Source of the DNA: a virus
Length of the DNA: 64,000 nt
IMG/VR virus record: IMGVR_UViG_3300050821_001198
Coordinates: 1 to 64,000 of that record
Direction: 5' to 3' (one strand)
The stretch's first letter is position 1. Each line of letters begins with the position of its first letter. The position numbers and the translations under genes are program-made. The notes under the pieces are model-generated. The model did no database searches and was not told the DNA's origin. It saw nothing but the letters and a program-made list of their open reading frames with translations. Positions 15,464-48,060 of the stretch are shown piece by piece.

Positions 15464-15468
15464 CCGTG

Positions 15469-18758: not shown

Positions 18759-18800
18759 TAGTTCCTCTCTGTAAGGACGACTTCGAGAACAGTGGTTCAA

Positions 18801-25116: not shown

Positions 25117-25124
25117 AGCCTCCT

Positions 25125-26446: not shown

Positions 26447-26452
26447 AAGGAA

Positions 26453-26481
26453 ATCGTAACAGGCGGGTCGCGCCGTGTCAA
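26453..26481 (-). promoter_or_regulatory. promoter TTGACA-N17-TACGAT
   Basis: GTG 6 nt downstream. Confidence 0.72.
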
Positions 26482-26482
26482 G

Positions 26483-28186
26483 TTACGCCACGCGGACAAC
26501 GCTGAGATAGTTATTGGTGCTGTCGTTACCGTCAGGGTATCCAGATGTCGTTACATTGGTCTGGAACCAAAGCTCAAGGTAGTCACCGGCATTACACAAG
26601 AGGATATCTGAGATTGCGAGAGCCGTTAGAGACCCGGCGGCCCCCGCTGCCGTTGCCATGCACACTCCATGTGTGACGACGGTACCATTCTGGTAAATCG
26701 CAAGGTAGTTCTGAGCGCCGCCCGCTACCGCTGTATTCAAGAGAATCTGTCCACTGACCTGGTAATAGCCCGCAACACGACAACTGTACCGATGATTCGT
26801 GAGACTCCAGTTGCCGCCCGGGTCATAATCAACCGTATCAAACGCGATCTTCTGCCATCCACTACCGTAAGCCGAGGGAGTTGAAGCTACATGTGCTCGC
26901 CCAATAGTGTTCGACCCTATTAGGGGTCCTTGGTTCTGCTGGGTCTTCAGCGCCTCTGTAGGGTTAGAGGCGTAGTAGTTGGCGATTCCAGCAAAATCGT
27001 AGGCCGCTACGATCCCTGTACCCGCCGAGTTAGGATGAATCTGATCGGTCTCCGTGAAGTAGTACACATTCTTGGCGATAGCTGTGTCCGCTCCTGTCGG
27101 CACAATGACGCGACCATCGGAATAAAGAGCGGCAACCGCCTGTAGCGCACTAAGCACAGATGCGACCCCCGCGTCATTCAGCGCGTATGGACGGGTCAAC
27201 CCCTCTACTGAATATCCGGTGCTTGTCAATCGTAGCGGTGGCTCCAGAATCACAAGCGGTGGCACATCCGCCTCAATACCCCACCAGTCGAAGAAGACAC
27301 CCTTGGTCTGAGCGTTGGTGAATGTAAGTGTGACATTCTGAGCCCCCGCAGCTAGAGTCCCGGCCGGTACGCGAATAGTCGCAGTTCCGTAATGAGCATT
27401 GGTGGTGGTATTGTTGAAGGCTGCCCAGATAGTACCCAAGTTGATCGTATTGCCGATGGGGTTACCTAGGTGATCCGTGGCCGCAATGGTACCCGCAAAC
27501 CCCGTAGGCCACGGTGTCGCGTCATTGATGATAGTGCCAAAGCACACGCCTTCACCGTTGTAGTCCGAGGGCAACGCGATAGTAATTGTGGCGGAGGCGG
27601 AGGCTGTTCGGTGAGCCGTTGTCCCAGAACTCTGAGTATTGGCGGTGAACGTGCTGGTTGTCCATGTTCCGGTCGAATAGGTAACCGTGGCATCGCCATC
27701 CTCGAAGACCTCTGCACAGCGAATCCGATCCACCGCCGCCTGCATGGCCGCCTCGAAAACTGTCGTGAACCCGGACCCAAACATGCCGTAGTCGTTGATG
27801 CCGTAGATAAAGAGAACAGCCCCCAAGTTGGTGACATACGGTGCTCCCGAAAGGGTGGGCGAGAAGGTAGAGTAGATTGTCGGCCAGCCGCCTGTGGCTG
27901 CTGCTCCTGATAGGCCGGACCCGTTCTCAAGGCAGATGCACGAGCCGCCTATCCCGTAGTTAGACTCAGTGGCACCCATCGCTTGAGCGATACGTGTCGA
28001 TTGCCTGTCGTTGACCGAGTAGGCGGGAGTAGCGTTCGTGAGGCCATTACCCTGAGCGTATGAGTGTCCAAACACCATCAGGTTCTTGGGAAGCGCGGGA
28101 ATTGTTCCCGTAGGCCCGGTCGGCCCGGTTGGGCCGGTAGGTCCAGTTGGACCGCCTGTGCCTGTTACTAGAGTGGAAGTTGCCAT
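26483..28186 (-). CDS. tail fibre/spike with SGNH hydrolase and C-terminal C1q-like domain
   Basis: FGHSYA, GIGG, GIND, DQIHPN; FDTVDYD...Y.C..AGYYQV...GDYLEL; short GPT repeat. Confidence 0.8.
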   Translation of the reverse strand: MATSTLVTGTGGPTGPTGPTGPTGPTGTIPALPKNLMVFGHSYAQGNGLTNATPAYSVNDRQSTRIAQAMGATESNYGIGGSCICLENGSGLSGAAATGGWPTIYSTFSPTLSGAPYVTNLGAVLFIYGINDYGMFGSGFTTVFEAAMQAAVDRIRCAEVFEDGDATVTYSTGTWTTSTFTANTQSSGTTAHRTASASATITIALPSDYNGEGVCFGTIINDATPWPTGFAGTIAATDHLGNPIGNTINLGTIWAAFNNTTTNAHYGTATIRVPAGTLAAGAQNVTLTFTNAQTKGVFFDWWGIEADVPPLVILEPPLRLTSTGYSVEGLTRPYALNDAGVASVLSALQAVAALYSDGRVIVPTGADTAIAKNVYYFTETDQIHPNSAGTGIVAAYDFAGIANYYASNPTEALKTQQNQGPLIGSNTIGRAHVASTPSAYGSGWQKIAFDTVDYDPGGNWSLTNHRYSCRVAGYYQVSGQILLNTAVAGGAQNYLAIYQNGTVVTHGVCMATAAGAAGSLTALAISDILLCNAGDYLELWFQTNVTTSGYPDGNDSTNNYLSVVRVA

Positions 28187-28195
28187 GACCGGAAC

Positions 28196-28857
28196 CTAGG
28201 AATACGTCGCAATTGCGCCTACGAGACTTAGGCCAGAGGTATGCGGGGTAAACGTGCAGGTTGGGGTCACCGTTGTATTGACGATTTGATACCCCATACC
28301 GAAAAAGTCGTTGTTCGTATCTCCCGTTGCGATGTCAACCCATCCGCTCGACGGGGTGATGGTTGTACCGGCTACTGCGTTCCCAGCAAGGCTCGCTACA
28401 GCGACGAGAAGTTCCGGCGAATGCGCCGTTGTAGCACAGTTTACCGTGACACTAGCCGTTCCTGTGCCGGTCGCTGTTTTATCAAGCGTTGGTCCGGTTC
28501 CAAGCACCAACAGGAGGGTGAACCCCCAATTGCCGCTAGATGAAGCGGGCGTGATTGTCCAAGTGCTGCCTTTGGCAAGCGCAGTTGTAATTGTCGCGCG
28601 AAAGATGTGAGCAACAGGGCCGCCCGCATTCTCAACTACATCTAGGTGATATGTATTGCCCCCGGCATCAGCTATCTCAGACGTTGTAAGACTGACGCCG
28701 CCGCCTGACTTAGCGCCTGCGATCAATGTGGCACCTACCGGAACAGGAGATGTCAATGTGCAACTGAGGGAGGTAACGTTTGTTTCCGTGTAAGCGTTGC
28801 CAGGGGTTGAAACGAAGCGCGGGCGATGAGGTTGAAAGGGCGCTCTGCGACGAGTCA

Positions 28858-28885
<28 letters not shown>
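28196..28885 (-). CDS. Thr/Ser/Gly-rich minor tail or virion protein
   Basis: Beta-rich composition, between fibre genes; start uncertain. Confidence 0.65.
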
Positions 28886-31163
<2,278 letters not shown>

Positions 31164-31167
<4 letters not shown>

Positions 31168-31652
31168 GGGGTTGGACTGATAAGAGCGATTGTCCCGATA
31201 ACGGGGAAGTAGTTGTTGGTGTCAGTATCAATGACTTCGATGTTGAAGTCGTACGAGCCCACAGCGAAAACGGACATCTGAGTGCCGGTAAACTTGACGG
31301 CCACGGTACCCTCCGTGCCTCCCATGGTGGCGGCGACGGTCACGCTCGGACCGGACGGGTTACCCGTTGTGGCTATAGTGGCAGAACCCGTCCACCCCGT
31401 AAGGTTGAGCTTATCAAGCGGAGCCCAATTAGTACCTCCGTCCGTGACGGGGTTGTCATTCTCTGCGATCTCATTGAGCGAGGCGTAGACATTCGCATCG
31501 GCACCCGCTACCATAGCGTTGACGGGGTAGGTGCGAAATGGCTGCCAGATTCCGTACCAGACGTACTCAAGATTCCCGTCGAAAAGAGTGATCTGCGTAT
31601 CGAAGGTCCCGCCTACGACACCCTGGAACGCGATATTGGCAGGCTGAATCAT
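31164..31652 (-). CDS. virion adaptor/baseplate-like protein with short carbohydrate-binding-type insert
   Basis: GGTFD...LNLTGWTG...G.V.V...T......G.Y.F.IEV pattern; W....TY..N..V insert. Confidence 0.6.
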
Positions 31653-31693
31653 ACGTAGATTACTCAGCCGCGAGGGCGAGTTTCTACGCGACC

Positions 31694-34600
31694 CTACTTA
31701 TATACCCGTCTCGGCCCGGTCTGTCCGGGTGGTAGTTGCTGCGAGGGCCGAACCTGGCCCGGATCAAGGTAGCCAATGGCGAATCGTGCCTCGCCCGGAC
31801 CGTTGTCGTCCATGGAGAACATGACTTCGGTCCACCCTGTCATCTCGTCCTGCGCCTGTACCTCGCCCGTGCGTGGGGAGCCGTCAGGACGCCTAGCCGT
31901 GACGAGAACATACTGCCCTGCGCCACCCTGCTCCTGCATGTACTCGTCTTCCATCAACTGGACGATCTGTCCATTCTGGTACTGTGCCGCCCACACGAAC
32001 TTAGAGTATGTGCCGGGACTCTGCACGGGGTTGAACGGGCTCGTGGGCTTGGCGCCCGGTACCGAGACCGCCCACGGAGGGGATGGCTGACCGCCATCTG
32101 TGGTGCCCGGTCCCTGCCACTGCTCCCATAGCTGCATCTGCTGGCCGGGGAACGGCGGGATGACGCCCTGGGGCTGTGCTCGCTGCTGCGGCTGAGCCTG
32201 CTGTGCCGGTGGCATCCCCGGAAGCGGCTGCTGACCCTGATCGGCCGGGAACATGTCCCCGTTAGGCATGAACGTACGTGGGCCGCTGGGAGCCTCTCTG
32301 ACGCCAATCGGCGCTGGGGCGGGTGCTGGGCCGCCTTTCGGCGCTCCTGGCCCCGGAGGGCCTCCTGGCTGCCCTGGGAGCCCGGGTGGACCGCCTGGGG
32401 CTGGAGCCGGTTGCCCAGAGGGTCCCTGTTGCTCGTCATCGTCGTCTACAGGGGCTGAGAGGCTCTTCCAGTATAGCGCGAGAACGTGAGAGCACGGACG
32501 CTGCTCGTACTTCTTCCACTTGCGAGTGCGATCAAATGAGAACTGAGCCCATGGGCACTGGCAGTTGTGAACATTCACCCCATAGACACGGAATGAGTGA
32601 TCCTCTTCGACCTCCATGTCAAACACGGGGCCGTCGTAATCCTCGAAGGTAACGCTCTCGATCTTATACCAAGACTTGCCATCGCGGACGAACCGAGGAT
32701 TGCAGCGAGCGCCGGTCGCCCACCGCACTCGGTAAATCCGTCGCCAGTTCTTGACGAATCCATTACCACTGTTCTCGTCATTCCATGTAAGCGAGGTAGC
32801 ATGACCGAGACGATCAAGAATAAGGCGAAGCTGATGTGCCATCGACCCACTTGTTGTGATGATAGAGGTTCGATTGCCGTCTACATGGCCGTCGCCCGCG
32901 ACATAGGCATCGATAAAAGCCCTCTGGACGGCCAACGGGGCTCGAAGTAGGGAAGGATGAAGTTGCTTCAAATGAGACCCGGTTCCTACCGCCTCTGTCA
33001 CAAGGGCTCGTAGACCCCCGTCCGATACTCGGAAGTCTGTCGTGTCCATACGATCCGTTCCGGGCCATGTATTCATGCGAATGGTCCCCGGCGTCCCGAA
33101 CTTACGTTCGATGATCTCAGATAGCTTCTTGGCGATGGGTCGCTCGTCCCGATGCATACTAAAACCGATCCGATTCTTTGTTGCCTTGATCACGAACCCT
33201 TCAGCCGCATACCATCCCAAGACGGTCCCCATATCCTCATCGATAGTGACGCCAGCAATCACGCAAGTCTCTTCCTCCTGAATCGGAGTGGATGACAGAT
33301 AGCCACCCGCTTGAAGCTTGTTTGCCTGCTCCCACCCGAACCTCGGGTTTAGCGGCCCCTCCCCAAGCTTGATCTTGCCGCGCCAACCAACACAGTCTTG
33401 CAGGTAGTAATCGTCGTTGGCCGACCAGAACTGGTGGTCCTCGGTGCAGACAATAGGCTCATCCACCCCCTGAAGCTTGATTGTCGCCAGCCGCCCTCGG
33501 TAGGGCTTTGACCAATGAGTAAGAACAGCCCGCGAGTTACCCTCATGAGTGAGAACGTGGTCGCCAACACCGATATCCTTGATTGCACGTCGAGTCCCGT
33601 CTGCCATTGTGACAGGGGCATCGGGGAGGAAACAATGCCAGTTGGTGATCACCCGTGACTCCGGGTCCTGGCGGCCGATCTCTACCTCGTACTGACCGTG
33701 GTCGCCCTGCACGGTGCCAACGATGTTCGTGGTGCCGTTGCGGAGTAGGATGACCTGATTACCCTGGATGAGCCGCTTGGCCTTCTCCATGATGTCGTTC
33801 CAGTCTGCCGTCTTGATAGCGCTCTCCCGCCGTTGAACGGCTATGCGCCTAATCCGTTCTGGTGGGATTGGCTCAACTACCCGCCATCCTGAACTCATCA
33901 GCGAAGTGCCAGCCTTACCTCCCGGTAAGAAGTTTTCAGGATCTTCGTATATCGGTCCAGTTGGTTCAACTCGGTAGACATTTGCTTGATCGCCCCCGTA
34001 TAAGCCAGCCTGATCAGGATCAACATGAGCATATGCCATCGTAGGGTGATAGGATTGATTGCGTACCCCTTCGACTTCGCTGAAGTTACCAGGATGTCCT
34101 ATCTCAGAAGCCGGTTGTACGACGTCACCAGGATTGAGTAGAGCATTGGTGCCATGGTAAAAAGGTCCTTCACCCTCATAGGGATAGAAAGGTGATTCAT
34201 CGGTTGGTGGCGGTGTAATACGTCGCATTCCTATCGTTCTGCGACGGGTATTCGGAACGTTTGCGCCAGGGGCATAGTAACTCTCATATGCCCATTGGGA
34301 TGGGTCCATCAACTCTAGGCGATCAGGGGATATCGGCTGAGTCGTCATAGCGGCATCTTCAGGAGGGGATCCCAAGTATGGGTCACCTACAAGAGGTAAA
34401 CCCTCATGACGAACGCGCCACACATCATAGGGGACATGGAAATCAAAGTACTTCATCGCAGCATAATCGTGAGCACTATGTTCATCGCCCCAAAGATAAT
34501 TGCCCTCTGGTGCCTCGATACTCGCATCGGCACCCCGAGCGTGGTCCAAACCATACTGGAGGATGCTATCACGGGAATCAGAGGGCGCAACGTGGTACAT

Positions 34601-35191
34601 CACCTGTGGTGTGCTTGATATTCGGCTCGGATTACATTCTGGGCAACTAGGATTTACCTCAGATGATTCACCTTCATGATATCCCAATTGGTGTGCCAAG
34701 GTTTGCGCTGGTCCTCCGCTAGCCCACGATACATACCGTTGATAATGAGGATGGTCAGGTGGGACTATTTCGGGGCCTGGATGCTGTCCACTTGTCGTGT
34801 CTACGATAGTTCCATCTGGCGCTACATTCCAAGAATGATCGCCGGGGCCAAGTCTTGGACGTACATAGAAACCCGCATCTTGTCTCAGATGCGGCCATTG
34901 ACGTGCTACGGCACTGGCTAGTTCGTAGCACTCTTCCTTGGCTCGATATTTGGCTAATTCATCGCGTGACGGGATCACCTGTGGTGTGCCCGGGTCATAC
35001 TCGCTATCCTCCGTTGGCTCATCCGGCATCTCGGTCTCGGCCAGCTTATACCCATGGTACGCTAGCTCGATCTCCGCGACCTCTCGAAGCGGTCCTCGCG
35101 AGAACACGATCACGCCCTGATCCGTCTTGAGACAGGAAGCGTGCTGAGTGAACCCGATGCAAGGGCGATCTAGGATCTCTTGAAGTTCCAC
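31694..35191 (-). CDS. modular polyprotein: papain-like domain, ART domain, Arr-like ART domain, intein-containing SWIM domain, Pro/Gln linker, C-terminal domain
   Basis: CYELA..GDHSW..IVDTT; MYHVA..SILQYGL..YLW..VWRV..ISPDRL; GPFYHGT..AYA..VYRVEPTG..EDP; WH|CQCP..PCSH. Confidence 0.8.
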   Translation of the reverse strand: MELQEILDRPCIGFTQHASCLKTDQGVIVFSRGPLREVAEIELAYHGYKLAETEMPDEPTEDSEYDPGTPQVIPSRDELAKYRAKEECYELASAVARQWPHLRQDAGFYVRPRLGPGDHSWNVAPDGTIVDTTSGQHPGPEIVPPDHPHYQRYVSWASGGPAQTLAHQLGYHEGESSEVNPSCPECNPSRISSTPQVMYHVAPSDSRDSILQYGLDHARGADASIEAPEGNYLWGDEHSAHDYAAMKYFDFHVPYDVWRVRHEGLPLVGDPYLGSPPEDAAMTTQPISPDRLELMDPSQWAYESYYAPGANVPNTRRRTIGMRRITPPPTDESPFYPYEGEGPFYHGTNALLNPGDVVQPASEIGHPGNFSEVEGVRNQSYHPTMAYAHVDPDQAGLYGGDQANVYRVEPTGPIYEDPENFLPGGKAGTSLMSSGWRVVEPIPPERIRRIAVQRRESAIKTADWNDIMEKAKRLIQGNQVILLRNGTTNIVGTVQGDHGQYEVEIGRQDPESRVITNWHCFLPDAPVTMADGTRRAIKDIGVGDHVLTHEGNSRAVLTHWSKPYRGRLATIKLQGVDEPIVCTEDHQFWSANDDYYLQDCVGWRGKIKLGEGPLNPRFGWEQANKLQAGGYLSSTPIQEEETCVIAGVTIDEDMGTVLGWYAAEGFVIKATKNRIGFSMHRDERPIAKKLSEIIERKFGTPGTIRMNTWPGTDRMDTTDFRVSDGGLRALVTEAVGTGSHLKQLHPSLLRAPLAVQRAFIDAYVAGDGHVDGNRTSIITTSGSMAHQLRLILDRLGHATSLTWNDENSGNGFVKNWRRIYRVRWATGARCNPRFVRDGKSWYKIESVTFEDYDGPVFDMEVEEDHSFRVYGVNVHNCQCPWAQFSFDRTRKWKKYEQRPCSHVLALYWKSLSAPVDDDDEQQGPSGQPAPAPGGPPGLPGQPGGPPGPGAPKGGPAPAPAPIGVREAPSGPRTFMPNGDMFPADQGQQPLPGMPPAQQAQPQQRAQPQGVIPPFPGQQMQLWEQWQGPGTTDGGQPSPPWAVSVPGAKPTSPFNPVQSPGTYSKFVWAAQYQNGQIVQLMEDEYMQEQGGAGQYVLVTARRPDGSPRTGEVQAQDEMTGWTEVMFSMDDNGPGEARFAIGYLDPGQVRPSQQLPPGQTGPRRVYK
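32564..33634 (-). mobile_element. intein (357 aa) with LAGLIDADG homing endonuclease
   Basis: Starts CFLPDAPVTMADG; CTEDHQF block B; LGWYAAEG and FIDAYVAGDG; ends VHN followed by Cys+1. Confidence 0.93.
34599..34989. repeat. perfect 16-bp direct repeat ATCACCTGTGGTGTGC at 34599-34614 and 34974-34989
   Basis: Read directly; spacing 375 bp (in frame), both copies encode TPQV. Confidence 0.9.
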
Positions 35192-35209
35192 GTCTATTAC
35201 CAGGCCGTT

Positions 35210-36346
35210 CTAGTAGATCCGAACGCCCAACTGCTTGAGCTTCTCGCCATACCCACGATTCATGATCATCTTGTACGCCAGGTTGCTCGCAGAGAAGTCA
35301 CCCTTACCGGAGGTTTGATCTCTCTGCCGCCGCCGATGGATGACCCCGTAATACTGAACAGCCTTCTCGGGCTCGAACTTGAGTAGGGTGTTCATCTTGT
35401 CGCAGACCTCAAGCGCGTACGTGTAGTCGGCGTGACGCTCTCGTTCAACATCGTGGCTCATACTGTGATCGGGCGGGACGATCCACTTACGGGTCTCAAG
35501 GTCGTACGCGGAACGCAGCCCCGGCTTGTACAGGTCGTGGACCGTCAGCGTCTTCGAGACCACGAACGCCTGGATGTCGTGAGCAGTGCCCGGTAGGAGG
35601 ATACCGTCGAACTCCTTGACCATGACACCGATCATCTCGCCACGGGACCACTCGGGGAGCCCTGAGACGAAAAGGCTGATGTCGCAGTCTGAGTGTGCGC
35701 TGTACTGGTACGTAGTAAGAGAGCCTGTGAGGACGAGCTTGAGCCACCTATTCGGACCCTCGTAGCCGTGCCGCTCCAGCGCTCCGTAGATCGTCTTGTG
35801 AATCCAGTCGTTGAGCTTGGGCTTCAACTGTGGGGTGGCGGTATTCGGGGCGATCCATACGGCCGGATCGAGATAGGGCTGGATTGGATCGAGGATATTG
35901 GCGTCCTTGAAGTGCGGTGCCAACACTAACTCCACCACGTTGTGAAGGTTCTTCTCTAGCAATTCGGCCTGACCTTCGTCTAGATCAAGCTCGTGCGGGA
36001 GCTTGACATCTACCTTCACGTCCTTGGGAGTGATCTCCGTGTCGTACACAGCGTCGGGTGTTTGACACTCAGTCTCAAGGGCGGAAACCTTGACCTTATG
36101 CCAACCCGGTGCCTTCACGTCCCACTCATAGTCCTCGCTGCCCACGTCGATCTTGTAGTTCGGGTACTCCTTCTCGGCCGCCTTCTGGACCTTGCTGAAC
36201 AGTTCGGTCGGATCAGCGTCACCTAGGACGATCTGGACCTTCTTCTCGGCATCATTGACGTAGATCTCTCCGTAGTCAATCGACTCGCCCACCTGATGCT
36301 TGAGGCTATCCATGCCAGTCCGCCAATCTCGTATCTCCGCCGCCAT
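35210..36346 (-). CDS. protein with C-terminal Pol-beta-type nucleotidyltransferase domain
   Basis: LVLTGSLTTYQYSAHSDCDISL (GS...DxD), YDL....W. Confidence 0.75.
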   Translation of the reverse strand: MAAEIRDWRTGMDSLKHQVGESIDYGEIYVNDAEKKVQIVLGDADPTELFSKVQKAAEKEYPNYKIDVGSEDYEWDVKAPGWHKVKVSALETECQTPDAVYDTEITPKDVKVDVKLPHELDLDEGQAELLEKNLHNVVELVLAPHFKDANILDPIQPYLDPAVWIAPNTATPQLKPKLNDWIHKTIYGALERHGYEGPNRWLKLVLTGSLTTYQYSAHSDCDISLFVSGLPEWSRGEMIGVMVKEFDGILLPGTAHDIQAFVVSKTLTVHDLYKPGLRSAYDLETRKWIVPPDHSMSHDVERERHADYTYALEVCDKMNTLLKFEPEKAVQYYGVIHRRRQRDQTSGKGDFSASNLAYKMIMNRGYGEKLKQLGVRIY

Positions 36347-38270
36347 CGTCTCGAAGATGCAAGCTCTTGACCTCTAGGGTCGGGAACTTGGCGTACCAGA
36401 GCTTGAGGAAGTAGTTGGCCGTCCACGGCATGTTGGTGAAGGTGTGGATTATGACCTTGCCGCTCGGGTCATAGACACCATCCACGATCCCTCCGGGGGT
36501 GAACTGCCCAGGGATGTCGGAGACGGTGGTACCCGGCTGACCCGTTGTGATCGTATCATCCTTGATGTCGTAGATGAACGGAAGCGGTCCTGCAAGGCTC
36601 TCGCCCGGAGTCGTCCTGTTGGTAAGCGCTACCTTGACCAGAAGAGCGTTTATATCTTCAGGTCGTCCGGCGACTCCGGACACCCGGTCATCCCCCGTGA
36701 GCCGTGCAATAGCCGATATACCAGCATGTCGCCAAGCCACGAGGTAATGATCCGATTCTGCGCTACTGGTCCTTTCCGAAATTCCTCGTAGGTGCGAGCC
36801 GAGGTTTCCGGCTTGAGCAGCCGTGACGTGGGCAACGTAAGGAAACTGATCCTCGAAGCGGTTAGACGGTGAAGGGTTGTCGGGGTCCCGTAGCTCGGGC
36901 ATGTGGGAGTCGTCCGGAAGAGGCGCTCCGTCCACGGCGGGATTGAGACTTTCTTCACGGTGTTGATGTTCGAGGTATTCGCTATAGGTCGGGTATACTG
37001 CGCCGCAGTGTTCACACTTGAATGCTCCACCATTGGTGGAACCAGATTCATTCTCGTAACGCGCCGGATACTGGATGTCATCTGGCTGCGTAGGATTCGG
37101 GTCGGCGTTGTTGTGAAGGTCAAGATGCTCAAGGGGTTTCACCACGTTATCGTTGTAGGCTAGTAGAGTGTGTCCCTGATCCTCGCACCACTCGCTGAGA
37201 CAGGCGAACACGCGCTTGTCATCCTCGAATGCGACGTGACGCATGGACAAAGGGTAATCGGGCTGAGTCAAAACTTGTACACGGGTATAACCGCTCGTGG
37301 TTGTCAGCGCCCCGGTAATGCGGGAATCTTCAACCAGCGAAAGAGCACCATACCGATGGACAATCACCAACTCGCCCGCATTCGTATACGCAAAGTAGGT
37401 CCGACTGCTGGACTTGCCGAGGAACGCTTCATCGTCTATAGGCGTCCCGTCAGCCTGGGCAAGCCCTCCCCAACTCCAGCCAGCGTGCTTCCCGTAGTCC
37501 TTGAGGACTCGCATGAGAGCGTTGGGGCTAATGTTCCCGGTTGCATGCCAGAATGCTACCCCATCTGACACATCTACTGTCCCTGCTGACATTGGTCCCA
37601 TGTGATTGGGCTCCGCTCCCGTGTGGCCTAGGAGGTCTTCGTGGCTGTGGAACGGTGACACTTCGAGGGACCCGTTAGCGTAGACGTACTTGTACTCGCC
37701 ATTGGCTGTGTCGGTGAGATCGTCGTGCATATAACGCTGGTCCATGTCGTCAATATTCTGTGGCGTCTCGCCCGGATAGGCGTCCCCAATCATGTCGGCA
37801 AACTTATGGAGCGCATCAGGGTTGTCGAAGAGCCGGTTAGCACGCTGAGCAAATCGCGCGGCCCGTTCATTGTTGAGCGCGGGCACAATCTCAATGCCAG
37901 CGTAGAACGGGTGAGAAGACTTCTTGAAGACGACAGGACCCGGCCGGTGGCTACGGTGTCGAGGCTGTAGCTCCAGTCCGGTGTCGTCGGGGTGAATCTT
38001 CATCCCGTTGAGAGATGGGTGTGCGGGCTTCTGAGCGAAGAGATCGCCGGTCAGGTCTAGGACGTACTTCCCGTCCTTACTGAGCCACACGTAGTGGCCG
38101 TCCTTGCGTGCGACGTGTCCACCGAGGCGATTGGCCAGCCAAGAAGCTGTGACGTAGCATTGCCCCGCCGACCGCTGCGGGTGACCCTTGAACGCCGGGT
38201 GACGTGTGTCATCGTCCCATGCACGCTCTGCGGCCTCTCGTAGAAGGTGAAGCTCGCCCTGGCTGAGCAT
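36306..38270 (-). CDS. modular protein with N-terminal papain-like (YunG-like) Cys-His-Asp domain and internal Zn finger
   Basis: SAGQCYVTA...GHYVW...VLDLTGD; CEHC...H. Confidence 0.7.
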   Translation of the reverse strand: MLSQGELHLLREAAERAWDDDTRHPAFKGHPQRSAGQCYVTASWLANRLGGHVARKDGHYVWLSKDGKYVLDLTGDLFAQKPAHPSLNGMKIHPDDTGLELQPRHRSHRPGPVVFKKSSHPFYAGIEIVPALNNERAARFAQRANRLFDNPDALHKFADMIGDAYPGETPQNIDDMDQRYMHDDLTDTANGEYKYVYANGSLEVSPFHSHEDLLGHTGAEPNHMGPMSAGTVDVSDGVAFWHATGNISPNALMRVLKDYGKHAGWSWGGLAQADGTPIDDEAFLGKSSSRTYFAYTNAGELVIVHRYGALSLVEDSRITGALTTTSGYTRVQVLTQPDYPLSMRHVAFEDDKRVFACLSEWCEDQGHTLLAYNDNVVKPLEHLDLHNNADPNPTQPDDIQYPARYENESGSTNGGAFKCEHCGAVYPTYSEYLEHQHREESLNPAVDGAPLPDDSHMPELRDPDNPSPSNRFEDQFPYVAHVTAAQAGNLGSHLRGISERTSSAESDHYLVAWRHAGISAIARLTGDDRVSGVAGRPEDINALLVKVALTNRTTPGESLAGPLPFIYDIKDDTITTGQPGTTVSDIPGQFTPGGIVDGVYDPSGKVIIHTFTNMPWTANYFLKLWYAKFPTLEVKSLHLRDDGGGDTRLADWHG

Positions 38271-39037
38271 TAGAACGGCATCTCCGAATGTGGCTCGGTG
38301 GTCTCGGGCATAGCGTCGTTGTTCGGAAGCATGTAAGGGTTACGGAACGGAACTTCCTCTAGAAGTCGGTAAGTGCCATTTGGCCGGTAGAAGCCGATGC
38401 CTGTTCGGGGCTGTCCGCGATAGCTCCCCCAGGGCTCATTGAGGGTGAACGGCTTGACGTAAATGTCGGCCAGTGAACGTCGGAAATCCAGCGCCACGAG
38501 CACGCCCAGAATCCCCTTGTAGCCCGCCTCTGCTGCGGCTGCGTTCTTGGTGATCTTCTCATCTGGCCCCACATTGAACTGAAGGGCGGCGTTGTCAACG
38601 TTGTACGACCGGACTTCGATACCCCATTCCTCGGTAGCCATGTCAAGGGGCGACGTGTAAGTGGGAGAGGTCCACACGATCTTCCCGTACCCGGGCAAGT
38701 ACCCGATCTCTTTGAGCAGGTTCTCCCCGATGTCTCCCTGCTCCTTGAGTGACAACCCGGAGCGAGTGGCACCGCCGGGGCCAACCGCCAATTGCATCTG
38801 GGCGTTGCCCATCTGGTCGGCCATCTCAGGCGTTGTGCCGCAGTTCGGACAGGTCTGTGTAAGGCTGAGTCCAGGGGCGTGCATGAAACCGCACCCATTG
38901 TGGGCGCAGGGAGAAAACCCCGCGTCCATGAGGTTAGTGCGCTCATTCTGGTCATAGGCAAGCTGTCCTGTTCCCTGTCCCGGGACTTGGGACTCTGGTT
39001 CCTGTGTCGGATCGGCTAGCGGGTCCTCGGGGTTCAT
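38270..39037 (-). CDS. Zn-ribbon plus PD-(D/E)xK-like nuclease domain protein
   Basis: C..NGC..CPNC; GDIGE...PLD......IEVR. Confidence 0.6.
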   Translation of the reverse strand: MNPEDPLADPTQEPESQVPGQGTGQLAYDQNERTNLMDAGFSPCAHNGCGFMHAPGLSLTQTCPNCGTTPEMADQMGNAQMQLAVGPGGATRSGLSLKEQGDIGENLLKEIGYLPGYGKIVWTSPTYTSPLDMATEEWGIEVRSYNVDNAALQFNVGPDEKITKNAAAAEAGYKGILGVLVALDFRRSLADIYVKPFTLNEPWGSYRGQPRTGIGFYRPNGTYRLLEEVPFRNPYMLPNNDAMPETTEPHSEMPF

Positions 39038-39055
39038 ACAACCCTTATCGGGTCG

Positions 39056-39265
39056 CTAGACCGGCTTACGCTTGTCGTGCTCGCGGATCGCCGCTAGGTG
39101 AGCGCCGCCGTCACAGTGGGCACACAGCACAACAGGAAGAGTAGGACGGAAGAAGCCGCTGGCCGTTACCTCGTCCGGCAATACGATGATGCGATGCTCG
39201 GGCACGTCTCCGTGCTTTGCCCGCCTGCATACTGTTGGGATCTCAGGTGGCTCTACGGTCGCCAT
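39056..39265 (-). CDS. small hypothetical protein
   Basis: CAHCD motif; AAGG RBS. Confidence 0.6.
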   Translation of the reverse strand: MATVEPPEIPTVCRRAKHGDVPEHRIIVLPDEVTASGFFRPTLPVVLCAHCDGGAHLAAIREHDKRKPV

Positions 39266-39268
39266 TGC

Positions 39269-39490
39269 TTACCTTGGAATCTCGATACAGCCAAACCCGC
39301 AAGTAAACGCTCGACCGCGCCTGCGACAAGTGCGAGTGCATCGGTTGCAGTGAACGAGCCCCTTGGAACAAGTGGAGTATCTCGCGGACGGCACCGCGTA
39401 TACAGTGCCCCCGTGCTCGCACTCGTACTCATGCTTGATCGGTCGGTCGTTGATGACCTCTCGCGGGATAACCTGTGGCTGTCCATCCAT
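39269..39490 (-). CDS. small Cys-rich protein
   Basis: Multiple Cys motifs; AAGGA RBS. Confidence 0.6.
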   Translation of the reverse strand: MDGQPQVIPREVINDRPIKHEYECEHGGTVYAVPSARYSTCSKGLVHCNRCTRTCRRRGRAFTCGFGCIEIPR

Positions 39491-39495
39491 GATCC

Positions 39496-40098
39496 TTAGT
39501 CCTTGCGGTTGACGATCTGCTTCATCACGTCACCAGCGATAGTGACGAATGCCGTCTGAGCGGCCTGACCGGCGGTCTCATCAATCTGAGCGCCAAAGAA
39601 GTAGGGAGCAAGTCTGCCACTGTCATCCGGAGCCGGTGCGACTGTGACCACCATGAAGGCCGCTCCTGAGGTCATTACCTCGATGGCCTTGCGAAGCATC
39701 CCGGCGTAGTTGTCGATCTCTTCCTCATCGGTAGGCGGTGCTGCTCCTGCTGTTGCTAGAAGGCGTCGTAGGATCTCCGACTCGACCCCTTCCTGACCGC
39801 CTAGCACGGGCGTCGGTTCCTCGATGTCCTCGGGGATCTCTTCCTCGGTGATCTCCGGGGGAGCGATTACCTCAAAGTGGGCGGCGTAGGTCCACATGTT
39901 CCGCTCGTTGTTGTAACGCATGTGCTTCTTATCCCAGATTACAAGGATACGCTCGAACTTCTCGGGATCGATTGTGTACTCCCCGATGGTTGCCTCGGCA
40001 CCAGCAAAGGACAATGGGTACACCTTGTCGTACCCCGGACGTAGGCGGACTCGGGACCCCTTGGTGTATGGAAGTGGCTCGTTACTAGTCTCTGACAC
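39496..40098 (-). CDS. hypothetical protein (SH3-like N-terminus)
   Basis: KGSRVRL...G...I.......V.WD. Confidence 0.7.
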   Translation of the reverse strand: MSETSNEPLPYTKGSRVRLRPGYDKVYPLSFAGAEATIGEYTIDPEKFERILVIWDKKHMRYNNERNMWTYAAHFEVIAPPEITEEEIPEDIEEPTPVLGGQEGVESEILRRLLATAGAAPPTDEEEIDNYAGMLRKAIEVMTSGAAFMVVTVAPAPDDSGRLAPYFFGAQIDETAGQAAQTAFVTIAGDVMKQIVNRKD

Positions 40099-40327
40099 TT
40101 GTCCGCGCTATCAAGGAGATGAGTCGGTCGGCTGTTCTGAGGCCGACATACACCATGACCACCTTCGACAGACGGTTTAGTGCCTTGACAGGGAGGGTGG
40201 CCGTCAGCGCCGCTGTGGCCATCACAAGCATGTCCGGATCAGTAAGTGCAGATTCATAGATGCCCCTGCCAACGGCCGTGGCAAACTCAGGAAACTGCCG
40301 TTCTTTGTCTGTGAGAATCGTCGTCAT
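40085..40327 (-). CDS. hypothetical hydrophobic protein
   Basis: ATGA overlap. Confidence 0.55.
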   Translation of the reverse strand: MTTILTDKERQFPEFATAVGRGIYESALTDPDMLVMATAALTATLPVKALNRLSKVVMVYVGLRTADRLISLIARTSVRD

Positions 40328-40788
40328 CGGTAACTTCCAACTGAAGTGACTGAACTGTAGCACTCTTGAGGGAGTCGTACAAGTGTGTCACTATAGAGGT
40401 CAACAAACCCCTCCATTACCTCAGGGGGAACCCGCGTTTCGTCGGGTCGGGCAGCATTACGAGCCCGTGCCTCATCGAGATTCTTGAACAGGATGAAGTG
40501 GGTATCGGCGTGACAATCGCTAGCCACGTCCCGGATTCGCTGACGATGCTCCACGGTCAGAAAGGTTGCGTCGGCAACCACATCAACGTCGTGCTGAAGG
40601 GCCGTAGCAATCTCCCCGTAGAACACATCCCAAGGCTTGATGTCCTCCCGATGCGCCTCTTTGAGCGATCCGGCTAGGCGCTTGCGAATCACATCGGACG
40701 AGACGATCTTGTAGTGGTATCGGAATAGCTCTGCCAGTGTGCTCTTCCCGCAACCCGGGACTCCAGCGAGGATGATTAGGTTACTCAT
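40324..40788 (-). CDS. P-loop kinase (polynucleotide kinase/AAA_33-like)
   Basis: LIILAGVPGCGKST, SSDVIR, VVADAT, RNAAR...VP. Confidence 0.85.
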   Translation of the reverse strand: MSNLIILAGVPGCGKSTLAELFRYHYKIVSSDVIRKRLAGSLKEAHREDIKPWDVFYGEIATALQHDVDVVADATFLTVEHRQRIRDVASDCHADTHFILFKNLDEARARNAARPDETRVPPEVMEGFVDLYSDTLVRLPQECYSSVTSVGSYR

Positions 40789-44198: not shown

Positions 44199-45493
44199 TA
44201 GGAGTAACGCTGATCCCGAAAGTACAGGACATCGTTGACGTACGTTGCAAGCTCTAGCTTGAACTTGCCATCGGGCCACACGGTAGCCGTGCCAAAGCCC
44301 TGCTGCCAGTCGGGGTTGACTGTGTAGCCTAGCCCATCAGACGTACACATACAGCCAGTCTCCATCGCCGCGATCACGCCGGGGTTACCGTCGATGTCAT
44401 GGATCGTCTTGTGAACGATTGACTGGCGGTGAACATGGCCGATCACGATTGAGTGACCTAGCGTCTCAAGAGTGGCTAGTGCTGACGCACCGGCACCCTT
44501 GCGAACAAGCCAACCGTGGCGAGCGGCGAGATTCTGACACACCTTGTGCGCCGCCTGCTCGTATTCGCCATCCGGCGTGATGTACTTGATCCCTAGTTCG
44601 TCCAGACGGAGTAGGTAAGGAATCGACATGACTGGTAGCTCTTCCTTCTGACCGGGCACTAGGGCTCGGCGGACACCGTAGATCCGTGGCATCTTGGCGA
44701 GGATGGCATCACGCATTCGTGCATCATGGTTACCTTCAAGCATGACCCACTCGGTGGACTCACTGGCTTGCACATACTCGCGCTTGACCATGTAGGTCTC
44801 ATCGAGACAGACCTGAACGGCCTCGTCCCACTCGGGGTTGTCGGGATACTTCGACAACTGCGAGAAGTCACCAGAGTCACCCATCATGACACCCTCGTCG
44901 GGCTTGTTGTACTCAAGCCACTCGCAGAAGAGTCCGTGGAGTCTCCGGTCGTGCTTGGGGGCCTGCTGGTCACCGACGAACACGATCCTGCGGATGTTGT
45001 TGTCGCCGTCGTATCTGACTGCTAGCGGCCGTCTCCGGATGTAGTCACCGGGGACGCGGGCCGGGATGATGAGTGTCAACGGAGCCTTCCGCTTGTAGTT
45101 CACCGTCAACTGCTTCATCAGCACGATGCGGTTGTCACCACTGGCCTTGTCTGAGGTCATGGCGTTCCACTCATTGACCTTGAGATTCACTACCTCCCAA
45201 TCGTCGGGCTCTAGGCCGCGCTCACGGAGAAGATCGTCGGGAGTGTTGACGGTTGTACCGGGCTGGGTGATGATCTCCGCGTCATCGCCCTCTAGCTTGA
45301 AACTTGCCTTGACGGCTGGACTCTTCCGAATCCCCCACCTACGCACTGCGCGGCGAACTGAATGGCGGGTAGTTTGCAGATCGTGACAATCTTCTAGGAT
45401 GTCTGCAATCTGCTGGTATGAGCGCCCTTCGTTCACGCAGTTCGTGATCAGATCACGGTACGCTTCGATGGGGCTCGGATTATTTAGGCTCAA
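44198..45493 (-). CDS. calcineurin-like metallophosphoesterase with N-terminal HTH
   Basis: GDQQ, GDSGD, GNHD, HG, GHVHR. Confidence 0.85.
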   Translation of the reverse strand: MSLNNPSPIEAYRDLITNCVNEGRSYQQIADILEDCHDLQTTRHSVRRAVRRWGIRKSPAVKASFKLEGDDAEIITQPGTTVNTPDDLLRERGLEPDDWEVVNLKVNEWNAMTSDKASGDNRIVLMKQLTVNYKRKAPLTLIIPARVPGDYIRRRPLAVRYDGDNNIRRIVFVGDQQAPKHDRRLHGLFCEWLEYNKPDEGVMMGDSGDFSQLSKYPDNPEWDEAVQVCLDETYMVKREYVQASESTEWVMLEGNHDARMRDAILAKMPRIYGVRRALVPGQKEELPVMSIPYLLRLDELGIKYITPDGEYEQAAHKVCQNLAARHGWLVRKGAGASALATLETLGHSIVIGHVHRQSIVHKTIHDIDGNPGVIAAMETGCMCTSDGLGYTVNPDWQQGFGTATVWPDGKFKLELATYVNDVLYFRDQRYS

Positions 45494-48060
45494 TCCTCAT
45501 CCAGTAGTCGATATCTTCGTTTCTTACTAGCCTGCGGAAGCCGGATAACTGTGTCATCCACTCTTGCTTCTTTTGTCCGCACACCTTCAGATTCGCTTTC
45601 ATCGTCGTGGACAGTATCAGTTTTACCCTGGTGTTTCAAGTCTTCTGGGTTCTCGTCTGGCGGGTGACCGTAAGTGAACCATGCCGAGTCACTCGGGTCT
45701 GTGGTTTCATACGAACCGGAGGCAAGCTCATAGGGACTGAAATTCTGACTCCAAGCGTTACTGCAATCGGTCTTATACTGGCGGTGACCCTTATTACCGT
45801 CTAGATGAAGTGTCAAAGGGTGATTCTCGCCGCGATAGTGGTCGGGCTCGGGAATGCCAGCCACTTGATCAATGGGCGGGAAGTTGACAATCTTGCCGTA
45901 CTGCCCGGGATCAATGTTGTACGGGTAGCGAGGGCCACTGTCCTCTAGCTCGAAGTCACCATCGGGGCCATCCTCGACTGAGCCTCCGTAGAAGAGTCCC
46001 GGCCGCCGCTCGTTACTGATGTCGGGTACGGTCCCTGCTGGACCCGGCTGCATCCCTCCACGGGGCGGCGCTCCGCCTCCGGGGGTTGCTCCACCGATGC
46101 CGCCCGGACCAAGCTGTCCTGGGCCACCCGGGGCTCCCATAGCGCCACCGATCCCGCCGGGAGGTCCGGGCATCACGATTGGGCTTCCAGGGCCGCCGTG
46201 GGGTCCCTGACCGCCTCCTGGGGGCATGGGCGGCTGTGTCGGTCCGCCGCCACCCGTTGGCGGGGGCGGAGTGCCACCGTTGCGGCTCGCCTCGACCTCT
46301 GCCTTGAGATCCGGTGGGATCGGGTACCCTGCCGCAGCGAGAGCGTTGTAGGTCTTGACCTTTGCGGCCTGCTGGGCGATGGTCTTCTTCTCCAGGTCTT
46401 CGTTGTACTTGATGACCATTTCGTCAAAATCGATGTTCACACCGATCATCAGATTCTCGTCCGGGATCGGGACGCCCTGCTGACGTAGGGCCTGGAAGAA
46501 CTGACGCTCGGTGGCCTCATCACGGAGGTCCAGCACAGAGAAGTCCAATTCAACGTCAATGAGCTTGTGTCGCTCTTCGACATGCTTGTTACCATCTTCA
46601 TCCTCAACCACAACCTCTTCCATGATCGGCACACGAGTCTCGCCGCGTGTCTCGTAGTCATAGTGACCTTGAGCCTCAGCGACAACCATCGCCCGCTCCT
46701 GGAAGTGCCGCTTCAAGTGGCCTTGGTAGGTGCGAAGAACCTGGTTCATGAACTCAGCTTGCAGTGCGCTCGATGCGTACGGCTGCGAGTTGGCACCGGC
46801 CGAGAGCAGTGACGGGTTGATCCCGAAAATCTGCATCAGTCGCCGCTCGATGCGGTCGAAGTCGTCACCGAGACGTGGCATCTGCTCGCGGCCAAAGACG
46901 TTCGTGATGTCGAGACCCATGTGGTGAACTAAGAGCCGGAAATCGGACGAGAGCGCCACATCCATATCGTCACGGAGAGCGTCAAGCTCGTCGGGAGACG
47001 GGAACCACGGACCCTGACCATCGCCCAGATCGGTAATCCCCATCTTGGCTAGGATCAGGGGAGAGTACAGGCGCTCTGCGATAGCGTCCTGTGAAGCCAG
47101 TAGCTTCTCTTCGTGGATGAGCGTGCGTAGTCCGCGCAGCAACATCGGAGTGCCATGGTCGTCCCACGACGTAAACTTGTTAGCTACCTGCTTGAGCAAC
47201 ACGTCGCTGATCGGGATGTGTTCGTTCTTGCGTAGGTACGGGATCAACTCTGGGAAGTTCATCTCCAGCATCCGGTACTCGCGAGCAGGCTGCTTTGTCT
47301 GTGCTAGCTTCTTGAGGTAATCCGGCGGAACGATCTTCAGCGCACGAGAGCCCAAGAGCGGGAAGTTCTCGATGATGATGTCCTCTGGGTTCAATAGCTC
47401 TTCGCGCTCCCAGATACCTAGTGTGTCATCAAACGACGCGAGCGGGAATGCCTCACCGACTAGGAAGTGCTCGCGACCGAGGCCGACGAAGAACTCCGGG
47501 TAGTTGAGGTCATTGAGGAACAGTTCCTCGTAGAACTTGGTGGCCCGCTTGTCCTTGCACCGGATCTCCATGCCCGACAGAGGGAAGCGGGTGAAGATGT
47601 CGATGAGAATGGGAACTAGGTAGTGAGTCGCGTAGTAGAGCCGCAGCCACTTGTGGAGCTTGTGCCGGTGGCCTTCGTCTGCCATGTTCCAGGGAAGTCC
47701 GGTGATGTCCCAATACTCCAGGGGGTCGTAGAACCGAGGCATAGCCGCGAAGACATCTCCGCCGCCTCCCGTGCCGATGTTGGCGTTCTTCCGCATGCTC
47801 GACGCGGTACGCTGGCGCTTCATCTCTCGGATGATGCGGGTGTTCTGCTGGATGTCGTCGGCCGCACTCTCTGAGTTAGCGGACGTGTCAAGGAATCCGT
47901 AGCGCCTAGACGATCCGGGCTGAGCACCCGCCATCTTGTGGATTGACAGAGCCTCTACCTGGGCTCTAGCGGCGTTGCGAGGTAGTGACACGCCACGAGC
48001 ACGGAGGTTGTCTACCATCGCGTTCAGTTGCTTCGTGTTACGTGCGCTCTGACCTGACAT
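45490..48060 (-). CDS. portal protein with long Gly/Pro-rich linker and C-terminal extension
   Basis: Near terminase; RLYY..H.LV...ID....FP, GEAF, LNP, GTP.L.R, AIAERL..PL; large-myovirus portal pattern. Confidence 0.78.
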   Translation of the reverse strand: MSGQSARNTKQLNAMVDNLRARGVSLPRNAARAQVEALSIHKMAGAQPGSSRRYGFLDTSANSESAADDIQQNTRIIREMKRQRTASSMRKNANIGTGGGGDVFAAMPRFYDPLEYWDITGLPWNMADEGHRHKLHKWLRLYYATHYLVPILIDIFTRFPLSGMEIRCKDKRATKFYEELFLNDLNYPEFFVGLGREHFLVGEAFPLASFDDTLGIWEREELLNPEDIIIENFPLLGSRALKIVPPDYLKKLAQTKQPAREYRMLEMNFPELIPYLRKNEHIPISDVLLKQVANKFTSWDDHGTPMLLRGLRTLIHEEKLLASQDAIAERLYSPLILAKMGITDLGDGQGPWFPSPDELDALRDDMDVALSSDFRLLVHHMGLDITNVFGREQMPRLGDDFDRIERRLMQIFGINPSLLSAGANSQPYASSALQAEFMNQVLRTYQGHLKRHFQERAMVVAEAQGHYDYETRGETRVPIMEEVVVEDEDGNKHVEERHKLIDVELDFSVLDLRDEATERQFFQALRQQGVPIPDENLMIGVNIDFDEMVIKYNEDLEKKTIAQQAAKVKTYNALAAAGYPIPPDLKAEVEASRNGGTPPPPTGGGGPTQPPMPPGGGQGPHGGPGSPIVMPGPPGGIGGAMGAPGGPGQLGPGGIGGATPGGGAPPRGGMQPGPAGTVPDISNERRPGLFYGGSVEDGPDGDFELEDSGPRYPYNIDPGQYGKIVNFPPIDQVAGIPEPDHYRGENHPLTLHLDGNKGHRQYKTDCSNAWSQNFSPYELASGSYETTDPSDSAWFTYGHPPDENPEDLKHQGKTDTVHDDESESEGVRTKEARVDDTVIRLPQASKKRRYRLLDED

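Follow-up and report, generated by a model that had tools for sequence, protein, structure and literature searches.

Phages and conjugative elements encode polyvalent proteins, in which unrelated enzyme domains are joined in one polypeptide and shuffled (Iyer, Burroughs, Anand, de Souza, Aravind 2017, PMC5512222). According to the main text of that paper they are encoded by phages with portal-terminase packaging, are predicted to be packaged, injected and active at invasion, and draw on a repertoire that includes 2H phosphoesterase and nucleotidyltransferase (NTase) modules as well as ADP-ribosyltransferases (ARTs) of the H-Y-D type, present in one to twelve copies, with the His in strand 1, the Tyr in strand 2 and the Asp in strand 5. 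For an ART that enters the host together with the DNA, the same text takes Alt of phage T4 as its working model. Solo ARTs of the Arr family are also known from Microbacterium and Gordonia phages, and are interpreted in the text of PMC9503650 as acting on rifamycin-like small molecules. Here we describe P0001, a 1165-residue protein encoded by the open reading frame (ORF) 31694-35191 on the minus strand of the first 64,000 nucleotides of the IMG/VR virus record IMGVR_UViG_3300050821_001198 (the window, which is the first half of a single 128,248-bp contig). P0001 is very probably a multi-effector fusion of the polyvalent kind, the cargo of which can be exchanged: a single polypeptide joins a thiol-hydrolase-like domain (module 1), two ARTs (modules 2 and 3, the latter related to Arr) and a SWIM core.

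The layout agrees with a preliminary description of the gene, which had already read a SWIM motif, an intein, a Pro/Gln linker and a small C-terminal domain in the ORF and had quoted motifs for the three modules that are all present where it placed them: CYELA (Cys88, around position 34930), GDHSW (His119) and IVDTT (Asp131) in module 1; MYHVAP (His200, around 34594), NYLW (Tyr232) and GDP (Asp270) in module 2; FYHGT (His346, around 34156), VYRVEPTG and YEDP (Asp417) in module 3. Its three hand counts of GC (27/60, 26/60 and 41/60) are exact, and the lower GC content it ascribed to the modules holds for the whole cassette: GC is 51.8% over residues 66-450 and 58.4% genome-wide, and just 0.3% of equal-length genome segments are as low. 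The drop is far beyond chance, and the composition of the cassette is foreign. At third codon positions (GC3) values of about 0.70 in codons 1-60 fall to 0.23-0.53 in codons ~76-435 and rise to 0.80-0.87 from codon 451; taken by feature, GC3 is 0.37-0.49 in the three modules against 0.68-0.83 in the flanks, and 0.58-0.78 in ten other genes of the same genome.

The closest orthologue, P0007, carries the same scaffold with different cargo. It was recovered, together with 11 other proteins, in a search with region 878-1165, to which it is 80% identical over 92% of the length. Along the whole chain, the 80% identity extends over the last ~265 residues and is 51% over the first 74, where the two N-termini are alike and P0007 also begins with VEL.EIL.RP, while no similarity is found across P0001 residues 75-445. 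The borders of similarity are those of the GC3 steps, and therefore point to a direct swap of cargo. The best explanation is that recombination inserted the cassette at the junction of the N-terminal segment with the SWIM core.

Exchange on this scaffold is not limited to one pair. A set of 18 SWIM-core proteins (P0001, 14 others found with residues 878-1165 or 1-520, and three from the IMG/VR scan) shows at least 14 architectures, so that the exchangeable cargo proposed earlier, for which a comparison of orthologues had been suggested, is well borne out. Two members, of 413 and 483 aa, are free of cargo. Cargo is found at three positions: on the N-terminal side of a 'pre-SWIM' domain; in the stretch from this region to the SWIM core, which is where P0001 has it; and between the PGTYS motif and the C-terminal domain. 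It comprises module 1, module 2 (as extra ARTs), a cREC_REC domain (E 1.3e-19), an Acb1-like 2H phosphoesterase (26.9 bits with a cut-off of 27) and the modules of two genes lying upstream of P0001. The modules themselves were followed through an exhaustive HMMER search with residues 1-450 (133 proteins, query included) and counted in a pool of 149 fetched proteins from which P0001 was excluded. Module 1 is present in 62 of them, module 2 in 82 and module 3 in 27, as stand-alone proteins of up to 170 aa in 30, 35 and 14 cases and within proteins of at least 500 aa in 22, 31 and 7 cases, respectively. Module 2 reaches five copies in one protein, the modules occur in proteins of up to 3335 aa, and P0003 joins a close relative of module 2 (about four-fifths identical by eye; 55% over 30% of the query by BLASTP) to a CCA-adding enzyme. 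The Arr-like module is found in none of the other 14 SWIM-core proteins of the pool, and no second copy of modules 1, 2 or 3 is found elsewhere in this genome.

The scaffold is recognized through its SWIM core, the N-terminal part of which matches phrog_30974 (E 1.8e-8) and phrog_2940 (E 2.2e-6), and through the C-x-C...C-x-H motif (C877-Q-C879...C900-S-H902) that directly follows the intein. As encoded, P0001 scores 16.9 bits with the Pfam SWIM profile (PF04434, residues 871-908), under the cut-off of 19.6, which is exceeded by six relatives (20.2-23.0).

Table 1. Features of the P0001 gene, of the genes upstream of it and of the portal gene (positions in the window; all on the minus strand)
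Feature	Residues	Position	Strand	Remarks
Whole ORF, P0001	1-1165	31694..35191	(-)	1165 aa, GTG start, stop 31694-31696, uninterrupted
N-terminal scaffold segment	1-65	34997..35191	(-)	GC3 0.68; 51% identity to P0007 residues 1-76
Module 1, Cys-His-Asp, thiol-hydrolase-like	66-196	34604..34996	(-)	C-x-x-C at end
Module 2, H-Y-D ART fold (predicted)	197-310	34262..34603	(-)	
Linker between modules 2 and 3	311-334	34190..34261	(-)	GC 0.507; covered by no profile
Module 3, Arr-related H-Y-D ART domain (predicted)	335-450	33842..34189	(-)	
N-extein, N-terminal part of SWIM core	451-519	33635..33841	(-)	GC3 0.83
Intein with LAGLIDADG homing-endonuclease domain	520-876	32564..33634	(-)	357 aa
C-extein, SWIM zinc knuckle	877-915	32447..32563	(-)	C877-x-C879...C900-x-H902
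Pro/Gln/Gly-rich low-complexity linker	916-1045	32057..32446	(-)	71% GC; position kept across family
VSVPGAK..PFNP.Q.PGTYS motif and C-terminal domain	1046-1165	31697..32056	(-)	
378-aa upstream neighbour		35210..36346	(-)	C-terminal 230 aa are a module fused elsewhere to SWIM cores or to modules 1 and 2
654-aa upstream neighbour		36306..38270	(-)	weak YunG-like N-terminus (E 0.001); C-terminal 'PFIYDI' module
255-aa gene		38270..39037	(-)	first of the block g255-g654-g378-SWIM protein; same-order homologue in L004
Portal		45490..48060	(-)	856 aa; phrog_2833, E 1.9e-156

From its predicted structure, module 2 can be confidently assigned to the ART fold, with an H200-Y232-D270 triad, as the preliminary description had it. 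In an alignment with 28 stand-alone relatives (n=29) His200 and Asp270 are invariant, and Arg207, Ser209 and Tyr232 are found in at least 90% of the sequences. The top Foldseek matches of the AF2 model (mean pLDDT 89.0) are all KptA/Tpt1 (E 2.7e-4, prob 1.00, TM 0.56 by query), with pertussis S1, PARPs and DarT next in rank. A VIA structure search, for which Z values below 8 are common by chance, returned KptA with Z 9.6 (rmsd 2.8, 85 aligned), PltA with 8.3, DarT1 with 7.9 and Arr with 7.0, with named ARTs in at least 39 of 50 rows, and 46 of the 47 sequences listed at E <= 10 in a PDB profile search are ARTs (PARP1/2/16, KptA, DarT; E 0.03-1.1). The best structural match, the RNA 2'-phosphotransferase KptA/Tpt1, covers only the ART half of that enzyme (chain residues ~91-180) with 14-18% identity, and module 2 is without its N-terminal RNA-binding lobe. 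An Asp is found in module 2 where the wider H-Y-[E/D/Q] group varies; both the H-Y-D pattern and the multi-copy habit fit the ARTs described in the main text of PMC5512222, and module 2 is a candidate member of the Tox-ART-HYD2 clade.

Modules 2 and 3 are taken to be paralogous H-Y-D ARTs because their profiles match each other with a probability of 95.7% (hhalign, E 1e-8, 96 columns) when deep alignments are used, as compared with 59% for small ones; their His, Tyr and Asp segments align. For module 3 the relationship to Arr is direct. The sequence alone matches ARR-2 (9iba) at E 4.4e-5, and a profile built from module 3 and 14 stand-alone relatives (15 sequences) finds the Arr-ms (2hw2/9iaf) and ARR-2 structures with E values from 3.5e-17 to 5.1e-17. 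The Arr profile match spans nearly the whole domain (profile positions 11-107). The Arr His, Tyr and Asp, which we take to be H19, Y49 and D84 in agreement with the chain numbering of the ARR-2 alignment, are aligned with His346 (FYHGT), Tyr381 (NQSYHPT) and Asp417 (YEDP). Curated cut-offs are not reached, with 22.2 bits (E 1.6e-4) against 25 for Pfam Arr-ms (PF12120), 24.4 bits (E 2.1e-5) against 130 for the NCBIfam model rifampin_ARR, and 24.2 against 250 for a second NCBIfam model (NF033144 is the NCBIfam accession given for the family); for this reason module 3 is not called an Arr equivalog. Thus, of the Arr-like assignment made initially, the homology and the alignment of the H-Y-D residues stand, and module 3 is, as judged from its sequence, an Arr-related H-Y-D ART. 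The likeness to Arr (2HW2/9IAF, 9IBA; PF12120) and to the solo Arr-family ARTs of actinophages, as these appear in the text of PMC9503650, is that of a small H-Y-D ART domain, which is here embedded in a 1165-aa protein instead of forming a ~140-aa enzyme and has a longer insert between His and Tyr.

Module 1 is the least securely assigned of the three. In a 29-sequence alignment Cys88, Gly107, His119, Trp121, Asp131 and Gln136 are invariant, and in the AF2 model (mean pLDDT 84.2) helix 23-33 starts with the Cys, and strand 50-58 holds the His, in a hairpin after the Cys helix. The best VIA match is TglA (Z 6.6; rmsd 3.9, 89 aligned), followed by LapG (6.1), PeiW (5.7), arylamine N-acyltransferase (5.6) and SpvD (5.4), and at least 25 of 50 rows carry titles of cysteine peptidases, transglutaminases/glutaminases, NlpC/P60 endopeptidases or N-acyltransferases. 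Foldseek found no match to the model in the PDB at E <= 0.001, and in BFVD only unnamed phage proteins (best E 1.2e-3). Pfam gives no match for module 1 of P0001 and a weak YunG match (E 0.0026) for that of one relative. A papain/transglutaminase-like fold can be proposed from the model with modest confidence, on the basis of a consistent list of matches and of the conserved triad in the right order, with no single strong match; the papain-like domain of the preliminary description is retained in this sense, with the Z value of 6.6 as its weak point. What is shared with enzymes such as LapG, PeiW, the arylamine N-acetyltransferases, SpvD and the transglutaminases is the order of Cys (at a helix start), His (in a strand) and Asp, together with the core, whereas no solved structure of any kind is matched at the sequence level, and Z does not exceed 6.6. 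The chemistry could be that of a peptidase, a deamidase or an acyl transfer enzyme. PDB sequence-profile matches of module 1 (e.g. alphavirus E2, E 0.019) were dismissed as being at chance level, and a joint alignment of modules 1 and 2 was dropped, as MAFFT placed module 2 sequences over module 1 with identities of 12-23%.

The SWIM core is interrupted by a well-formed intein, directly before the first zinc-binding Cys. It begins with Cys520, has TEDH (583-586) as the T-x-x-H of block B and two LAGLIDADG-type segments, and ends with VHN (874-876) followed by Cys877. Profile matches are found to LAGLIDADG_3 (39.3 bits, cut-off 22.5), intein_Cterm (17.7, cut-off 15.6) and Hint, with Pfam Intein_splicing remaining under its cut-off (31.4, 35.8). 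When residues 520-876 are removed, the flanks align across the junction with no gaps to the intein-less P0002, P0014 and P0004 (61-67% identity). The sequence thus has the features of a class 1 intein precisely inserted into a conserved site of the host protein, and the intein, for which splicing is predicted, must be spliced out before the SWIM zinc site can form. Among the 16 of 18 SWIM segments that could be parsed, six contain inteins, located before the first Cys in P0001, P0013 and P0015, before the second in P0016 and P0018, and before the third in P0007. Inteins tend to settle in essential sites. With inteins before zinc-ligand cysteines at three sites, the SWIM site is likely to be an essential feature of the scaffold. 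A tblastn search of P0001 against cultured phages (E <= 1e-5) gave 31 records, all intein-only matches (query residues 511-878), with no cultured phage carrying a full-length relative of the ORF; megablast of 31000-37000 gave no match. No paper combining an intein with SWIM was found in the literature searched.

The genome belongs with the large myophages of actinobacteria. Its portal is 39.6% identical to those of the Mycobacterium cluster C myophages (Bixzunavirus), and related portals occur in 227 cultured phages, of which almost all are phages of Mycobacterium, Gordonia and Rhodococcus. A SWIM core is present in 223 cultured actinobacterial myophages, with counts identical to those of the portal for phages of Mycobacterium, Gordonia, Rhodococcus and Mycolicibacterium. 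The homologous proteins, Bixzunavirus gp95, Myrna gp96 and E3 gp76 ('LysM-like protein'; phrog_2940, phrog_30974), share the SWIM core with P0001 and, by the portal, its lineage. In Bixzunavirus (BananaFence gp95) and Rhodococcus phage E3 (gp76) the gene lies between the portal gene and those for the prohead protease and the minor and major capsid proteins. BananaFence gp95 (1277 aa) contains LysM (E 7.7e-10) and also matches PHROGs of transglycosylases and endolysins; the N-extein of P0001 is 34% identical to its residues 373-439 (67 aa), after which the C-x-C...C-x-H parts align. The three proteins differ from P0001 in their location between portal and prohead protease genes, in the LysM domain (gp95), in a conserved C-terminal tail, and in giving no Pfam match to an ART, a thiol hydrolase or an intein. 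Nothing usable on virion proteomics of cluster C or E3-type phages was found in the literature searched, and Myrna gp96 is unmentioned in the Myrna capsid paper.

With these elements, the full model is that of a polyvalent protein on a SWIM-based carrier that is packaged in the virion and injected, for which we put the chances at about even. A lineage-specific scaffold, consisting of the N-terminal segment, the SWIM core, the Pro/Gln-rich spacer, the VSVPGAK...PGTYS motif and the C-terminal domain, would be common to the actinobacterial myophage group, and a recently acquired three-enzyme cassette would have been inserted between its N-terminal segment and SWIM core. P0001 would be made late with the neighbouring structural-type genes, be carried in the virion and enter the host with the DNA. 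There, with NAD+ made by the host or by the phage as substrate, the two ARTs would modify macromolecules of the host or small molecules, while the thiol hydrolase may free the modules or serve as a further effector, and the SWIM core and the C-terminal domain may act as anchor or adaptor.

Several observations weigh against this model. The structural matches of module 1 are modest and module 3 remains under the Arr cut-offs, as detailed above; packaging and injection of P0001 are steps that we infer, and the packaging of T4 Alt, which belongs to the R-S-E clade and is no multi-enzyme fusion, has by contrast been proven experimentally. The P0001 gene lies outside the head module, with the prohead protease, cement and capsid genes at 119.7-124.6 kb and ~10 kb of phosphoesterase, HNH, kinase, nucleotide-metabolism and other genes between it and the portal gene. 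A place inside the head-gene block is thus seen for the SWIM gene of the cultured relatives; the P0001 gene lies ~10 kb from the portal gene and next to fibre-like genes, away from the protease and capsid genes, and its initial placement in the virion gene region may hold in part, with P0001 a putative head protein. The conserved ~40-aa C-terminal tail of the SWIM proteins of cultured phages is absent from P0001 and is found instead on a separate 249-aa ORF upstream of the head genes (genome 127407-128156, minus strand; L006 11408-12157), the last ~40 residues of which are 54-57% identical to the tails of Bixzunavirus gp95 and E3 gp76. The E3 record labels gp70 and gp78 as structural and the SWIM protein gp76 not. 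Finally, some of the cargo types in relatives of P0001, e.g. Acb1-like domains, act in the cytoplasm of cells infected by other phages, without being packaged.

Some of these points favour the main rival, namely that the same fusion is not packaged but made in the infected cell for cytoplasmic counter-defence or host takeover, with the SWIM core and the C-terminal domain targeting the enzymes to DNA or to a host or phage protein instead of holding them in the capsid. By taking into account the location of the gene among non-structural genes, the missing tail, the label of gp76 and the kinds of cargo in relatives (Acb1-like 2H, cREC, CCA-adding enzyme, Fic), which are of types that work in the cytoplasm, this alternative is possible though on balance doubtful. 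A DNA-directed role of the carrier would also be in keeping with SWIM being otherwise tied, in the main text of PMC5512222, to SNF2 helicases acting on DNA, and with the weak SWIM/SNF2-associated leads given by the minimal 413-aa member in the ESM Atlas (scores up to 0.78, TM <= 0.29 by query). It has to be reconciled, however, with the co-distribution of the SWIM-core gene with one portal type and its location inside the head-gene block in 223 cultured phages, with the fibre-like character of the same-strand downstream neighbours of the P0001 gene (a small ORF 41 bp downstream, then a collagen-like fibre-type gene), and with the long disordered linker and modular layout, which match those of the packaged polyvalent proteins as described in the main text of PMC5512222. 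The peptidoglycan-related features of the Bixzunavirus homologue, i.e. the LysM domain and the transglycosylase and endolysin PHROG matches of gp95, along with the presence of the pseudomurein endoisopeptidases PeiW and PeiP and of NlpC/P60 endopeptidases among the structural neighbours of module 1, raise the alternative of a mainly structural virion protein for penetration of the envelope, in which module 1 would be a cell-wall endopeptidase aiding DNA entry and the ARTs secondary passengers. We consider it very unlikely, as the Pfam scan reveals neither LysM nor another wall-binding domain in P0001, module 1 is stand-alone (<=170 aa) in 30 of 62 proteins and accompanies ARTs in large proteins without wall-binding domains, and wall enzymes do not stand out among its closest structural matches.

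A further alternative concerns the substrate and is compatible with packaged and unpackaged scenarios alike: the Arr-related module would ADP-ribosylate a small diffusible compound, for instance an antibiotic of the rifamycin type, keeping host transcription running or disarming a chemical anti-phage defence. The profile match to Arr structures, which takes in almost all of the domain and aligns its His, Tyr and Asp, the like reading of the solo actinophage Arr-family ARTs in the text of PMC9503650, and the fact that this phage lineage infects actinobacteria all speak for it; the scores of module 3, far under the NCBIfam equivalog cut-off and also under that of Pfam, its longer His-Tyr insert, and the adjoining paralogous ART, of a kind that in polyvalent proteins is predicted to modify proteins (main text of PMC5512222), make it unlikely. 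Quite unlikely as a whole is the still broader proposal that the SWIM-core protein is a delivery chassis of actinobacterial myophages, derived from a head-module gene and with three swap sites for counter-defence modules, in which the Arr-type enzyme would here ADP-ribosylate either an anti-phage metabolite resembling rifamycin or a nucleotide immune signal, and three independent intein invasions at zinc-ligand cysteines would mark an indispensable SWIM site.

With respect to what is already in print, polyvalent proteins, their H-Y-D ARTs and 2H domains, and solo Arr-family ARTs in actinophages are described. The carrier of P0001, a SWIM scaffold with a Pro/Gln linker and a C-terminal domain, is none of those given in the main text of PMC5512222 (MuF, portal, N4-type RNA polymerase, ArdC-N/metallopeptidase), and a word search of that main text, from which the online architecture list may differ, found no thiol or cysteine peptidase and no intein, and SWIM only with SNF2 ATPases. 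Apparently new in the texts searched are the SWIM scaffold as carrier, the Cys-His-Asp cargo family, an Arr-like domain in such a fusion and the three SWIM-cysteine intein sites, although the online catalogue of the 2017 paper may list such proteins. The idea of polyvalent proteins is thereby extended to a previously undescribed carrier, conserved across large actinobacterial myophages including those of Mycobacterium cluster C, with a clean example of cargo exchange, in which near-identical scaffolds bear unrelated cargo and the cargo borders of P0001 are visible as sharp GC3 steps. The family also provides a catalogue of candidate counter-defence enzymes, namely H-Y-D ARTs, Arr-like ARTs, Acb1-like 2H, cREC and the small Cys-His-Asp family. 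If rifamycin-type compounds were indeed substrates of the Arr-related domain, phages would be carrying a resistance-type activity as cargo, and, if the chassis carried such an enzyme into the cell, this would be the first virion-delivered ART that inactivates a small molecule.

The genes upstream of P0001 take part in the same exchange. Three of them (255, 654 and 378 aa) are found in the same order beside the SWIM gene in the uncultured L004 and L005. The module of the 378-aa gene occurs in P0008, P0011, P0019-21, P0029 and others, and the C-terminal modules of the 654- and 378-aa genes are found in fusions, with a SWIM core as the partner in P0019-P0021 and modules 1 and 2 as the partners in P0008 and P0011. 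From these fusions and the conserved gene order it follows that block 31694-39037 behaves as one pool of interchangeable parts. By eye, the 378-aa gene product has a G-S...D-x-D nucleotidyltransferase-like motif, with no Pfam or PDB match, and PDB searches with the two upstream neighbours (654 and 378 aa) gave nothing under E 0.19. The N-terminus of the 654-aa protein is possibly a second Cys-His-type module, and a C2H2-like zinc-finger segment is seen in it by eye; its similarity to module 1 was not retained (hhalign probability only 50%). A link between the N-terminal segment of P0001 and the 'pre-SWIM' domain of other members is likewise not claimed (hhalign probability 4.8%, E 0.008), and the C-terminal domain brought up nothing usable in the ESM Atlas. 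In L004, a 2157-aa ORF (11975-18448, plus strand) comes after the SWIM gene; it contains repeats of the 'PFIYDI'-type module and is another candidate giant polyvalent protein. A scan of 25000-44500 for promoters and terminators gave counts no higher than those of shuffled sequences (10 versus 8.0 +/- 2.4 and 11 versus 11.9 +/- 4.2, respectively), and for this reason the operon structure is not established.

Other features of the genome can be listed more briefly. The collagen-like gene downstream of P0001 (28858-31167, minus strand) encodes a 769-aa protein, mostly of G-x-x repeats and probably a fibre; after it come a 229-aa ORF, a 567-aa GDSL/SGNH-like protein and a glycosyltransferase of group 1. 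Of the portal, only residues 5-591 fall within the portal PHROG match, leaving an unexplained C-terminal extension of ~260 aa, and directly after the portal gene, as in L004 and L005, comes a metallophosphoesterase with an N-terminal Clr5 domain (44198-45493, minus strand; E 2.2e-7). Between the tail-bearing 249-aa ORF and the head genes lies an ORF resembling a homing endonuclease, with GIY-YIG and helix-turn-helix (HTH) parts (genome 126862-127413, minus strand; L006 10863-11414). The window also encodes a large terminase, nucleotide-metabolism genes, rIIA and rIIB, and NAD-salvage genes. The rIIA-like and rIIB-like genes (15469-18800, minus strand; E 1.9e-85 and 2e-54) are found here in a genome of the actinophage type. 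The NAD+ salvage pair consists of a nicotinamide phosphoribosyltransferase (57534-58946, minus strand; phrog_448, E 5.4e-131) and a cytidylyltransferase-plus-Nudix protein of the NMN adenylyltransferase type (58968-59966, minus strand), and occurs in the same genome as the two predicted NAD-using ART modules. Near a tRNA-Met gene (57445-57526), ARAGORN reported a tRNA-like gene (60407-60481, minus strand) with a four-base anticodon (ggtt) and no amino acid assigned.

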